64,000 bases of DNA from Octopus vulgaris. Its lineage: Eukaryota. Below are positions 16,691 through 38,228 of this stretch, piece by piece. The translations under genes and the position numbers were made by a program. Every line of letters starts with the position of its first letter. Position 1 is the first letter of the stretch. The DNA lies in NCBI GenBank assembly GCA_951406725.2, contig OX597814.1, positions 28,334,001-28,398,000 on the forward strand. Direction: 5' to 3'. The notes under the pieces are model-generated. The model worked only from the letters and a program-made list of their open reading frames with translations, made no database searches and was not told the origin of the DNA.

Positions 16691-18118
16691 TACTTTTAAT
16701 ATTTATAATTGTATTCTTCATGTAAATAAATTCAATAAACCTTTTTGAATTCAAAGAATCTATGATCGTCTTCCTTTCACATCAATAGGGTAACGACCGA
16801 ATAAATAAATATATTTTGGGGTAATTGGTTAAAAAAGTTCCCCGAACCCTGGACTAAATGCTTCAAGGCGATGTCCCAACATGGCCGCAGTCGAATTAAC
16901 TGAAACAAGTAAAATAACAAAACATAAAATATAGCAGTATTTATAAAAATGCTCTGTCGGCTTGATGAACCCAATAACTCTTTGTATTTGCTTTATAGAC
17001 CACAGCGGGATTTGAATCTCAACGCTTACTAATCTACCAATATAACCAGGTTAAAAGCAAACACCGATGATAGCCGCACTTGTTATGAAAAGGAAGTGAC
17101 CATGACACTTTATTTATTTATTTGTAATGGAATTTGAGAACAATAGCGCCGATGATTACAGGCTTCCAATAAACTAATCACAGGTTGGTTCTCCGTACTT
17201 CTGACAGTGGCAAAAGCAACAAGAGAACACCATCGCTTTTTCCGTGGGCGAAACACACACACACGCACACGCACACACACACACGCACGCACGCACACAC
17301 ATACACACACACACACGCACGCACACACACACACATACACACACACACACACGCACACGCACGCACGCGCGCGCACACACACACACACTGACACACACAT
17401 GTCCATGTGTGTGAAGATCAAACTGATCGGATAATAGTGTAGGCGTAAATACAAACTTGACTTTTTTTTAATACTAAGCATGAAGTTAACAGTCTGGAAA
17501 ATTACAATCGGATTGGTTGAGCACATTCCTCAAATGATTCAGCATCAATATCAACAACTTGCAGAAAAAAGTCTGAATTCCGTGATATTCTAAACTAGAA
17601 GAGGCGAAACTTTTTCGTGTTGGAAGACCGCTTTGAAGTAATTGCCATCTGATAAAGCCACACAGAAAAAAAAACAACAAAAAAAAGCGAATAAATAAAA
17701 CTTAAATAAAAAATGAAAATTATTTTATCAGATATCTTTATTCATAAAAAAACACTAAAATAATGAAAAAATGCGGAGTTTCGGAATAAGCCCCATGACG
17801 GTTAATTTACAAAGGTAGATGAATGAAGGAATAAGCGTTATAAAAATATGCACTCTGCTGAAAAAAAACTTTACGAGTCTTTATGTAAATCTCTCTCTAT
17901 ATAGCAATAATAATTCTCTAAACGAGATATAGACAGTAACTGCCCAATCACATAAGGGACATTAGCCATTTGAATGTGGCTAGGGACAGGGCAGGGCGGT
18001 GGGGGTGTTACTGATGCATTTAGCCCCAGGCGATCATCAACGTCACCAGATAGGCTGACACCATCACGGTGTCCTCTATCCTGCAAAGGGAGATCATTCC
18101 CCGAAGAAGCGGATGCCA

Positions 18119-18161
18119 CATACGGACCCAGGTTTCAAGGTATTTGCCTATCGTCAACGTA
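18119..18161 (-). ncRNA. Antisense copy of the type I hammerhead motif
   Basis: Exact reverse complement of 18377-18419. Confidence 0.55.
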
Positions 18162-18374
18162 ATGCATCAGTAACACCCCCACCGCCCTGCCCTGTCCCTA
18201 GCCATATTCAAATGGTTAATGCCCCTTATGTGATGGAGCAGTTACTGTCTATATCTCGTTTAGAGAATTATTATTGCTGTCGAACAGATTTTCGAAATCA
18301 GTAAATGTATTTACGTGAAAATCTATATATAAATATCCTGCACAGGAATTTGTTCGTCGAGGAGCGGTGCCTGC

Positions 18375-18419
18375 CATACGTTGACGATAGGCAAATACCT
18401 TGAAACCTGGGTCCGTATG
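18375..18419 (+). ncRNA. Type I hammerhead ribozyme (U3 variant)
   Basis: Stem I catacg/cgtatg, core UUGACGA, stem II agg/cct, GAAA, stem III acc/ggt, GUC site. Confidence 0.75.
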
Positions 18420-18589
18420 TGGCATCCGCTTCTTCGGGGAATGATCTCCCTTTGCAGGATAGAGGACACCGTGATGGTGTCAGCCTATCTGGTGACGTTG
18501 ATGATCGCCTGGGGCTAAATGCATCAGTAACACCCCCACCGCCCTGCCCTGTCCCTAGCCACATTCAAATGGCTAATGTCCCTTATGTG

Positions 18590-18980
18590 TCTCTCTATAT
18601 ATATAAAGCTGAAGTTGTCTGTGTATGGCAGGTTTGGTAGCCTTCAACTAACACTATCTCCTCCGAGACCCTGCGGCGCAAGTTGACCAAAATTGAGATT
18701 ATGATAGAAGAAGGCTTGCTCTTCCTTCCGTAGAAGAAAAAAATTCAAATCGGACCTTGTTAACATCAAAAATTATTTACATCAAAAAGGTGCTTTTTTT
18801 TTTCTATGAAAATCTCTATTTTTTTACTACTGTGTCGCCATTTTTCGGTGTATTTCAACCAGAAAAATGTTCGCTTAAAGAGAATAACAAGCTACACAAT
18901 GCAAAAGTTTTACTTTATAAAAATTCCAATTCTAAAGGGTCGAAACAAACCCGAGCAACGCCGGGCGATACTGCTACTAG
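18590..18980 (+). mobile_element. Non-autonomous Helitron, second subfamily
   Basis: TC start tctctctatatatataaagctgaagttg. Same 3' end acaaacccgagcaacgccgggcgatactgctac/ctag as the 1878 element, with a different interior. Confidence 0.8.
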
Positions 18981-19105
18981 AACAAATTCCGGTATAATGA
19001 TTTTCCTCTCAGACCTTGTACTTCATTCAGAAAACTGCATATGACACTCGAAAATCTACAGTGAGTTGCAAATAGCATTTCAGAAGGCCCTACTATTGCA
19101 GTTCC

Positions 19106-19491
19106 CTACATTCTCTTGAAAAACGCCGCCGCCGTGGTGATCTCATTCTCGCCCACAACATCATAAGCGGAAAGTGTAACCTCTCGAAAGAGCTGTTCTT
19201 CACTCCTGCTCCAGAGCGTCGGCTGCGGGGTCATTCCGAAAAGCTCTACCTGCGACGATTTCATCTCAATCGAAGGAGAGGAGCTTTCTCCGTCCGGGTT
19301 GCGGATCCGTGGAACAAGCTGCCAGACGAGATGGTGAAGATGCCGACGACCGCTTTGTTCAAAGCCTCCCTGGACCTCAAGTGGCCTGAACTCTTTACAT
19401 GAACACCACCCTGTACTTAACTCCATGTCCCCCTACATGGCCTTGCTATTTGCTTTTGAGCCAAATTAACTAACTAACTAACTAACTAACT
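19106..19491 (+). mobile_element. CR1-type LINE 3' fragment with (TAAC)n tail
   Basis: Open frame 19106-19402: SLEKRRRRGDLI...RGHSEKL...FSVRVADPWNKLP...FKASLD. Short 3' UTR and taactaac tail. Confidence 0.92.
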
Positions 19492-19751
19492 AAAATTTGC
19501 TCTACAATCATAATTGAAAACACACGTTAAAAATCAAGGGTACAAGAAAATTGAACTCAAGAATGAAGAGAATATAAAAAACCTCAACCCTACACGAAAT
19601 CCTGGATTCTTTTCATGTATTAGTCTCCGTCTACACACTTTAATAATGACATATTTTGTCTTCCCTTAATCTTTTATTGATTTCAGCCATTTTGACTGTG
19701 GCCATACTGGGGCATAGCCTAGGAGGCTTATAGTCGAACAGATTGTTTCTA

Positions 19752-20127
19752 TTATTCTTTTACTTGTTTCAGTCATTTGACTGCGGCCATGCTGGAAGAA
19801 ATCGACCTCAGGATTTATTCTTTGTAAGCCTAGTACTTATTCTATCGTTATCTTTTGCCGAACCGCAAAGTTATGGGGAAACAAACAAACCAGCATCGGT
19901 TGTTAAGCGATGGTAGGGGTACAAACACACACACACACACACACACACACGCGCGCGTGCACATTCATACGGCGGGCTTCTTTTAGTTTCCATCTACTAA
20001 ATCTTTTCACAAGACTTTGTTCGGCCCGAAACTATAGTAGAAGATATTTACCCAAGGTGCCACCCAGTAAGACTGAACCCGGAACCATCTGGTGAAAAGC
20101 AAGCTTCTTACCACACAGCCACACCTT
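19752..20127 (-). mobile_element. Family B SINE, diverged
   Basis: Reverse-complement tail (cttgtttcagtcatttgactgcggccatgctgg) through the head. A further decayed copy lies at ~20130-20445. Confidence 0.85.
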
Positions 20128-36606: not shown

Positions 36607-36926
36607 TCGCCCTTTTCAAGCCTAGCCAGGCTCATGGGCCCGGTTTCCCGGTTTCTGTGGCATATGTATTCCCCCCAGCTGGACGGGACGCCAGTCCATC
36701 GCAGCATTACTCACGAAAAAGGAAGAGAGAGTGAGAGAAAGTTGTAGCGAAACAGTACAACAGGGGTCGCCACTAACCCCTGCTGGAGCCTCGTGGAGCT
36801 TTTAGGTGCTTTCGCTCAATAAACACACACAACGCCCGGTCTGGGAATCGAAACCGCGATCCTCCGACCGCGAGTCCGCTGCCCTAACCATTGGGCCATT
36901 GCGCCATTGCGCATCCACTATAAATA
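36607..36926 (-). mobile_element. SINE, head A + tail 2
   Basis: Matches the 29334-29615 copy. Confidence 0.88.
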
Positions 36927-37091
36927 TATAATAGACGTGTTATGAATAAGCACAGTAATAAAAGAGTGAAGAGCGAATATATAGTGCGTGTGTTTATTTG
37001 GTAAAAAAAAGAAGGAAAATGACCGTCCCGAAATACAATATATGCTGCGGTCATGCTAGAGCACCATATATAGAGATGCAGCACGGAATTT

Positions 37092-37138
37092 TGTCAGTGA
37101 ACAGGTCGCGGTCTCAAAGCGACGAAAATATTTTGGCA
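37092..37138 (+). ncRNA. Hammerhead-like motif with G3:C8 core swap
   Basis: tgtca GUGAACA g gtcgc/gcgac GAAA, palindromic aatatt stem III, UUU site, tggca. Confidence 0.6.
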
Positions 37139-37391
37139 TAGATGTTGAAGTGAATCTAACGGTTTTTGTGTGTTTCTTAAATGGTTTATAAACACCTTCC
37201 ACGCTGCAACTGTTTTCATTCCAGCACACGATCTCAGATCAATTCACTTGCTATGCAAGTACATCTCCGTAATATATATATATATATATATATATATACG
37301 AAAAATATATAGGGTAGCGAGATTTTTAGAAATTTCACTACCAGTGACCTAGCATGTATAAAAAAAAAATTCAATAGACAACATATTCTCA

Positions 37392-37529
37392 ATATAAAAC
37401 AGTGTACATTTAAACACACGAGAAACTACCTTTAACAGGTATTTTGGTCGTTTTGATTGCTTCTTCTAGCGTGTGAAGCTGCCTGTTAAAGGTAGCTTCA
37501 CTTGTGTTTAAATGTACACTATTTTATAT
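37392..37529. repeat. ~48-bp inverted repeat with 42-nt spacer
   Basis: atataaaacagtgtacatttaaacaca..ctacctttaacagg and its reverse complement at 37482-37529. Confidence 0.88.
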
Positions 37530-37631
37530 ATATATATATATATATGTATATATATTATATATATACATATATACATATATATAAATATATATATATATAT
37601 ATATGTGTGTGTGTGTGTGTGTGTGTGTGTA

Positions 37632-37782
37632 TAGGGAGAGTTTACGAAAAAAAAAAAAAAAGAGAAAGGCAGGTGGTGCACAAAACGAACAGATGTATTA
37701 GTATAACGCTCAGGAATAGAAAAAGTCTTTTACCTTTCGAGCCTACGCTCTTCTACAGAAAGGGACACAGAAAAAAACAAGG
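37632..37782 (-). mobile_element. Short PLE-end-like repeat, CUGUNGA motif (37726-37763)
   Basis: tttcgagcctacgctcttctacagaaag. Stem III is mutated. Confidence 0.7.
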
Positions 37783-38064
37783 ATATATATATATATATAT
37801 ATATATAATAGAAATATTAAAATAACTAAGTCTCTCAAGTAGTGTGGAGCGACTGACCTCCCTTGTTCGAAGGTTATATGGATACAGTTTGTGTATCAAA
37901 TAGCTAACTTAAGGCGATGGCCTCATGGAGCTAATAAGCGGACGGCTTTTTTCTTATTTTTATAAGAATGCCATATTAGTATGGCGATAACTATATATAT
38001 ATATATATATATATATATATATATATATATATATATATATATATATATATATATATATATATAT

Positions 38065-38228
38065 AACGGGAAGCTTTATGAAAATAAACAAAAGATGAAG
38101 GCTGGTGGAATACAAACAAACAATTGTATTAGTATGGCGCTCAGGAATATAAATAAAACAAGTCTTTTACGTTTCGAGCCTACGCTCTTCAACAGAAAGA
38201 TACACAGAAAAGAAACATGGAAAGAAAC
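38065..38228 (-). mobile_element. Short PLE-end-like repeat
   Basis: Third copy of the family. Confidence 0.7.
38163..38200 (-). ncRNA. Minimal hammerhead-like motif (CUGUUGA variant)
   Basis: Minus strand reads tcttt CUGUUGA a gagc-gtag-gctc GAAA c GUA aaaga. Confidence 0.55.

Follow-up and report, generated by a model that had tools for sequence, protein, structure and literature searches.

Why should eight hammerhead ribozyme (HHR) folds lie close together in one stretch of octopus DNA? The question is raised by 64,000 nucleotides of the Octopus vulgaris genome (assembly GCA_951406725.2, contig OX597814.1, positions 28,334,001 to 28,398,000; G000:C1:28334001-28398000 in the searched genome), hereafter called the window. 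The original prediction, made from the letters of this stretch, saw there a cluster of unrelated short non-coding elements with minimal HHRs, a retrozyme-like system mobilised by proteins of Penelope-like elements (PLEs). We compared the window with the genome, searched as 2.8 Gb in 227 contigs, and with loci fetched from it (given below as L numbers). Our best explanation, which we hold with a probability of about 0.8, is that the window contains independent insertions of six HHR families, three of them pseudo-long terminal repeat (pLTR) ends of PLEs and three of them non-coding units likely mobilised in trans, by the mechanism proposed below. The overall system, i.e. hammerheads in PLEs and retrozymes as PLE derivatives, has already been described.

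All eight predicted sites were located and all are minimal HHR folds of type I; the positions first given are motif ends, accurate to within a few bases. As had been noticed, stem III is short and either a palindrome or close to one. A canonical type I core (CUGANGA...GAAA...UH) is present at 27510, 28188 and 30020, with stems that pair among family copies, and a ninth HHR copy lies at 18157(-), within an inverted repeat. A relaxed type I scan gave seven matches in the window, six inside the studied region and a weak one at 9940. The strict scan, which required a fully palindromic stem III, gave six matches in the window versus none in each of 12 local dinucleotide shuffles; it missed the mutated copies at 28188, 30020 and 37758, whose relatives retain both core and stems. 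Cofolding predicts intermolecular pairing for four motifs, in a register that is not always catalytic. Two checks proposed with the prediction had different outcomes: stem covariation was seen by eye, as compensatory double changes in stem I of the 357, ~520 and ~550 bp families, while the Rfam scan returned no hammerhead among the 150 matches listed of 204 at E<=5, mostly microRNA noise from microsatellites, and it is our motif scan that was positive. Microsatellites and SINE (short interspersed element)-like repeats are abundant in the window.

The eight sites are covered by six unrelated families spread genome-wide (713 to 3,237 first-look candidates per family, 40 of each scored), which agrees with the six or more contexts first recognised. 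Whether they form a cluster is a matter of degree. The flanks of the fetched loci hold 16 strict matches in 212,725 bases, 7 of them further copies of the same insertion, so that the background is ~2.7 independent matches per 64 kb versus 5 in the window (hand-computed Poisson P about 0.14). The window is thus somewhat rich in HHR motifs, yet it is no unique cluster; because all five independent matches fall within 20 kb, some local enrichment is likely. Nor is it a single ribozyme-element system: the families are independent insertions of different ages. Unrelated HHR-bearing families, some with canonical cores, were also seen in L142, L153 and L075 and upstream in L143 and L026; the stem I and stem II letters of L142 match the G3-C8 family described below, and it may be a C3-G8 relative.

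Compared with their genomic relatives, five sites (27510, 37097, 35947, 37758 and 38195) are the pLTR ends of three longer PLEs: the 27510 family, the G3-C8 family (37097) and the U6 family (the last three), the latter two named for their cores. The PLE link of the prediction is borne out by two loci with a pLTR, an open reading frame (ORF) and a second pLTR: L230 of the G3-C8 family, a locus whose period is 4261 bp and in which each pLTR has a G3-C8 core, and L202, where U6-core pLTRs flank reverse transcriptase (RT)-like and endonuclease-like frames. The ORF of L198 (G3-C8 family) matches GIY-YIG (PF01541, E=9e-5, 23.1 bits for a cut-off of 22.6), and a YVDD motif and a CX3CxxC linker can be read in the G3-C8 ORF. 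L198, L231 and L202 have a CX2-5CxxC linker upstream of a C-terminal GIY-YIG that carries CCHH, and blastp gave mutual matches among the proteins of the G3-C8 and U6 families; the linker, taken as a motif only, is compatible with the Neptune and Nematis clades alike. Most G3-C8 copies are ~145-205 nt long, but a pattern built on upstream sequence finds 480 longer ones, several of which have more than 1.5 kb upstream in common, leading into the ORF. L029 (U6 family) is continued upstream by a frame whose end is endonuclease-like and which has a CX4CxxC linker, and copies of the 27510 family reach more than 700 bp upstream into broken GIY-YIG-like C-terminal frames. Two PLE families are thereby shown to encode RT and a GIY-YIG endonuclease. 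Several results weigh against our explanation: (i) the RT match of L202 (PF00078) is below the Pfam cut-off, (ii) a Pfam search of the G3-C8 ORF gave no RT match, (iii) the GIY-YIG match of the 27510 family (E=0.007) is below the Pfam cut-off and (iv) the ORFs are interrupted in long PLE copies. No RT was seen in the 27510 copies examined, so this third family is likely coding rather than demonstrably so.

Inverted 5' copies and AT-rich targets recur across families, insertions being mostly at (TA)n tracts; two 3' ends were tallied for G3-C8 only. No short tandem copies of the 27510, G3-C8 or U6 families occur among the fetched loci, and across the genome a pattern for the head-to-tail junction of a G3-C8 unit gave 0 matches, which led us to drop the idea of a G3-C8 unit that is short and circular or tandem. 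A MITE (miniature inverted-repeat transposable element) reading of this unit, suggested by a short terminal inverted match, was also abandoned because its coding parent L230 was found. L196 and L197, which look like G3-C8 tandems at 3.4 and 2.6 kb, lack a PLE ORF and are duplications of a local kind; L213-L216 likewise show kilobase-scale local tandem duplications in which G3-C8 pieces are passively carried. In L199, a nearly whole PLE of a different family with RT and GIY-YIG (927-3365) adjoins a long G3-C8 copy. Since the five sites are pLTR ends of longer PLEs, the retrozyme reading fails for those five; the original prediction had itself regarded truncated pLTRs of long coding PLEs as fatal to that reading, and this is what five of the eight sites proved to be.

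The retrozyme-like part of the prediction holds up better at the other three sites, where non-coding tandem units are found, with periods of 357, ~520-534 and ~547-564 bp and longest ATG frames of 88, 53 and 49 aa, respectively. The architecture said to be common to these three hosts, a unit with a partial direct repeat and an inverted 5' copy, was confirmed. When 357-bp copies are extended 5', they re-enter the unit at the exact period for up to ~3.5 units, often with inverted blocks. Tandems bearing HHRs were seen for the 357-bp family (arrays in L077, L092 and others), the ~520-bp family (L106) and, partially, the ~550-bp family, of which L122 has two HHR-bearing passes. A relative only 68% identical to the 357-bp unit, L178, has the same period and architecture; the 357-bp unit is therefore an old non-coding lineage, of which one subfamily, with copies 95-100% identical, has spread recently. 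The 357-nt unit folds better than shuffled sequences (z-score -4.2); a short G3-C8 copy does not overall (z -0.7). BLAST found no match between the ~520 and ~550 units; by eye, a similar AT-rich motif occurs at their 3' ends (27872-27905 and 29667-29720). The HHRs of the three units are minimal or variant, so the canonical HHR of the 2020 retrozyme definition is lacking. Altogether the units fit non-autonomous PLE derivatives, a known kind of element, and were likely mobilised in trans by PLE proteins. It speaks against this that none of the fetched loci, a small sample of the genome, holds a coding partner for them.

What template such proteins would copy is less clear. The units may be true retrozymes, whose arrays are transcribed, cut by dimeric HHRs, circularised and copied by a PLE RT. 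This is compatible with our best explanation, of which it specifies the template, and we place it slightly short of an even chance; that the tandem units form circles at all has about even odds. The re-entry at the exact period with variable 5' ends, the unit length retained at 68% identity and the covarying stems are all as expected from circles, but multimeric linear transcripts or template jumps would leave identical DNA. In addition, the 357-bp subfamily spread recently with the altered core described below, and just one of nine predicted Xenopus dimers cleaved in vitro (bioRxiv 10.64898/2026.07.22.740005; this and other published work is cited from the parts available to us). No record registered as RNA was found among those listed with the units. 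Among contigs from four runs presumed to be RNA, a 387-letter one circles the unit once and a 390-letter one of a related unit has higher depth; tandem DNA would yield the same contigs, which are thus no evidence for RNA circles.

The cores depart from the textbook. The supposedly invariant C3-G8 and A6 fail in three families, in which G3-C8, U6 and U3·G8 are fixed. A degenerate G3-C8 pattern has 5,952 genome matches (control 0); in the first 100, counted by hand and lying at the start of the largest contigs, as do the other such counts, 94 are G3-C8, 4 C3-G8, 2 G3-G8 and none C3-C8, and two C3-G8 loci fetched from the list belong to other families. The U6 pattern has 15,487 matches, with U6 in 96 of the first 100 and any of the four bases at position 7. 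In the 357-bp subfamily, U3·G8 and a U·U pair closing stem II (10.1/11.1) were present in all 44 motifs tallied, versus U3-A8 and G10.1-C11.1 in the diverged relatives L224 and L178; a young subfamily therefore spread with a likely weakened core. Further U3-A8 hammerheads lie in L093 (~2550-2600, a separate family), L224 (2503-2565) and L178 (1-805). Within the 28188(-) family (L096-L115), stem II is closed by G-C in some subfamilies and by U opposite U in others, the latter paralleling the unrelated 357-bp family. One genome therefore offers a natural series of cores (C3-G8, U3-A8, G3-C8, U6 and U3·G8) in elements whose copy success is known, which allows activity to be compared with spread, and descriptors that fix CUGANGA overlook about 21,000 motif matches in it. 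G3-C8 itself is a double mutant of long-standing laboratory use. The literature searched contained no natural G3-C8 or U6 hammerhead, although the survey of PLE variants by Lünse et al. fell outside it and may list them; it also contained no survey of octopus or cephalopod hammerheads, and the words 'ribozyme' and 'hammerhead' have 0 occurrences in the available text of an Octopus repeat annotation (PMC13282606).

Such cores could be dead relics that hitch-hike with their elements and whose folds no longer matter. A change of A6 in a phage HHR gave low activity (PMC3088659), and catalytic mutants left insertion by the Poseidon element PAc in vitro unaffected (PMC11167929). We nevertheless regard this as unlikely: positions 3 and 8 change together, as the 94 G3-C8 and 0 C3-C8 cores show, U6 is kept while its neighbour at position 7 varies freely, and U6 persists across pLTRs about 20% diverged. 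We instead propose, tentatively and with somewhat less than even confidence, that G3-C8 and U6 are fixed cores of successful coding PLEs, and that the thousands of solo copies may be complete complementary DNAs (cDNAs) of a capped, uncleaved leader rather than random 5' truncations.

The ends of the G3-C8 copies bear on this proposal. Among 28 G3 matches sampled by position (three pairs being inverted partners), two reach upstream of an AG at +1 and the other 26 do not; 15 end 3' at +206 (long) and 13 at +145 (short). Cleavage is predicted at about +58, and the ATG of the ORF lies at +115. For 1,362 copies the start is intact; the first 100 of these, searched for G, C or A at -1, have G in 45 cases, C in 50 and A in 5. 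The flanks contain 14% G and 33% A, and C is the genomic base. Flanks were fetched for 40 of 45 G-type copies and for 20 of 50 C-type ones. Half of the G-type copies (20/40) are non-inverted and have nothing in common upstream of the G; the C-type comprises 9 longer copies, 7 inverted junctions and 4 unrelated flanks. In LINE-1 and SVA, an untemplated G is interpreted as marking a cap (PMC4859970), and in Penelope the pLTR contains an internal promoter as well as a start site (PMC2377424). The extra G is, from its distribution, likely a cap mark too, and together with the fixed start it suggests that the short copies are reverse transcripts of an uncleaved 5' leader; no example of untemplated ends in PLEs was present in the literature searched. 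In the 27510 family, 8 of 19 copies start within about 10 nt of a TCACT motif in best-hit samples. Several points count against a capped start: (i) the other 20 of the 40 G-type copies are inverted junctions, where the G may be junction microhomology, (ii) the 5' ends of the U6 family, also in best-hit samples, cluster near a TCAGAT motif without an extra G, (iii) the +1 site resembles a splice acceptor, with a branch-point-like motif, pyrimidines and YAG, and (iv) PLE leaders can carry introns (PMC2377424).

The last two points raise the possibility that the fixed 5' end reflects splicing at an acceptor, or RT halting at a structure, rather than a capped start. The acceptor-like sequence lies directly upstream in 480 exact matches, its AG is kept as CAG or TAG, a possible donor is present ~300 nt upstream in L230, and introns are known in PLE leaders (PMC2377424, PMC8557442). 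However, the short copies retain the AG, which splicing would remove, and have no common exon upstream of the single G. The splice model is thus disfavoured, and we consider the alternative as a whole improbable, a shade more so than dead cores.

That all eight sites are non-autonomous retrozymes multiplying through circular RNAs, as first proposed, is very improbable: while three units are non-coding tandems of 357-564 bp, one of which folds well, and comparable repeats yield circular RNA in coral, mussel and axolotl (PMC7229834), the pLTR assignments refute it for five of eight, the G3-C8 junction is absent genome-wide and the youngest tandem family carries a core that has degraded from a U3-A8 form.

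Under the preferred explanation, i.e. independent PLE and PLE-derived insertions, transcription of the coding families likely begins within the pLTR, a little upstream of the hammerhead. AT-rich DNA would be nicked by the PLE protein, which would begin reverse transcription at either of two internal sites early in the ORF. A start on the 5' pLTR would give a ~145- or ~205-nt cDNA that passes the uncut hammerhead and reaches the capped 5' end, and this would account for the thousands of solo copies; a start on the 3' pLTR would give long copies. For the non-coding units, the same reaction on multimeric or circular RNA likely produces the copies of more than one unit. Weak cleavage is predicted for the hammerheads, as dimers or aided by protein, and cleavage is likely dispensable for insertion. 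Most genomic copies of PLE hammerheads are unexplained solo motifs, and the role of the hammerhead in PLEs has been stated as an open question (PMC8557442); a fixed start with an extra G provides a test, in sequence only, of solo copies as leader cDNAs. If true, the proposal would supply in vivo genomic evidence for internal initiation on uncut RNA and, together with the young non-coding family and its decayed core, would imply that ribozyme cleavage acts off the insertion path.

How do these elements compare with known ones? Minimal type I HHRs were described in the pLTRs of metazoan PLEs by Cervera and de la Peña in 2014 (PMC4209133). As there, the HHRs studied here are of type I, with a short palindromic helix III and an extra nucleotide between 9 and 10.1, occur mostly as solo copies with opposite-strand pairs 100-700 bp apart, and include a U3-A8 variant (here in L224, L178 and L093); in contrast, the available text of that paper mentions neither G3-C8 nor U6 cores and names no cephalopod. 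Natural core variants listed by Perreault et al. in 2011 (PMC3088659) likewise include 3-8 pair covariation (U3-A8) and a position-6 variant, which is A6C with low activity, whereas G3-C8 and A6U are unlisted in the available part and here fixed in thousands of genomic copies. The nearest mechanistic parallel is PAc of Anolis, in which the HHR needs protein and uncut RNA is the substrate (Frangieh et al. 2024, PMC11167929). Both systems have an HHR at the pLTR-ORF junction and AT-rich targets, and the ends at +145 and +206, past the ORF ATG, resemble the two internal RT start sites ('tail') of PAc. Unlike PAc, the elements here have a CX2-5CxxC linker, their G3-C8 is a natural family core where C3G/G8C was engineered with partial rescue of cleavage, and their short copies carry a putative cap mark, not reported in what is available of that study.

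The C-terminal GIY-YIG with CCHH and the linker (L198, L231, L202) recall endonuclease-bearing (EN+) PLEs of the Neptune/Nematis type, as do tandem and inverted insertions and microsatellite targets; the endonuclease region of the 27510 family looks different (Craig et al. 2021, PMC8557442). Non-autonomous PLEs, MRC1 among them, have been described in Chlamydomonas (PMC8557442), and a 2026 preprint on 35 genomes argues for non-LTR retrozymes being non-autonomous PLE derivatives and accepts minimal HHRs in retrozymes; as far as its available text goes, the survey includes no mollusc (bioRxiv 10.64898/2026.07.22.740005). Like non-LTR retrozymes, the three units are non-coding tandems, a few hundred bp long, that carry a type I HHR and have a tie to PLE pLTRs (PMC7229834; 10.64898/2026.07.22.740005). 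They differ from the retrozymes of 2020, with canonical HHRs and demonstrated circular RNA, in that their HHRs are minimal or variant and known from DNA alone, their arrays are short (up to ~3.5 units seen) and their inverted 5' copies are of PLE type (PMC7229834).

Table 1. Features of the window (positions in the window; cores in RNA letters)
Feature	Position	Strand	Remarks
Full 357-bp non-coding unit	18233..18589	+	Core UUGACGA 18381-18387; predicted cleavage after 18413
Partial direct repeat, 3' 72 bp of the 357-bp unit	18161..18232	+	96% identical
Inverted 5' copy of the 357-bp unit	17903..18161	-	Second HHR core 18157-18151
Solo pLTR fragment of a likely coding PLE	27471..27643	+	Canonical core CUGAUGA 27510-27516; predicted cleavage after 27582; 97.7% to 3' pLTR of L203/L065; GIY-YIG-like frames upstream in family
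~520-bp non-coding unit and partial direct repeat	27872..28550	-	Core CUGAUGA 28188-28182; predicted cleavage after 28134
Inverted 5' copy of the ~520-bp unit	28551..28688	+	
~560-bp non-coding unit and 64-bp direct repeat	29667..30294	-	Core CUGAAGA 30020-30014; predicted cleavage after 29970
Inverted 5' copy of the ~560-bp unit	30323..30463	+	
Weak, decayed PLE-like remnant	32280..33320	+	RT/GIY-YIG-like pieces, decayed core-like motif; tblastn E=0.009, small home-made profile E=0.01; linked to none of the six families
Solo pLTR fragment of the U6-core PLE	35828..36028	-	Core CUGUNGA 35947-35941; 82% to 5' pLTR of L202
Short copy of the G3-C8 PLE	37073..37273	+	Core GUGAACA 37097-37103; predicted cleavage after 37133; extra G at 37073, +1 at 37074; PLE ORF start included; long 3' end
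Solo pLTR fragment of the U6-core PLE	37633..37783	-	Core CUGUNGA 37758-37752; stem III mutated; 87% to 5' pLTR of L202
Solo pLTR fragment of the U6-core PLE	38051..38229	-	Core CUGUNGA 38195-38189; 97% to 3' pLTR of L202

Elsewhere in the window, a second PLE remnant suspected at ~25.7-26.7 kb could not be confirmed. Frames at 19076-19402 and 61964-62787 resemble what we take to be RT fragments of long interspersed elements (LINEs) of the CR1/L2 type. A 221-bp inverted repeat at 7583-8151 (98% complementary, 127 bp spacing) could be a PLE-type inversion or a MITE, a long, near-perfect hairpin at 50996-51153 is MITE-like, and a tandem array of 87-bp units with long open frames occupies 52956-54633.

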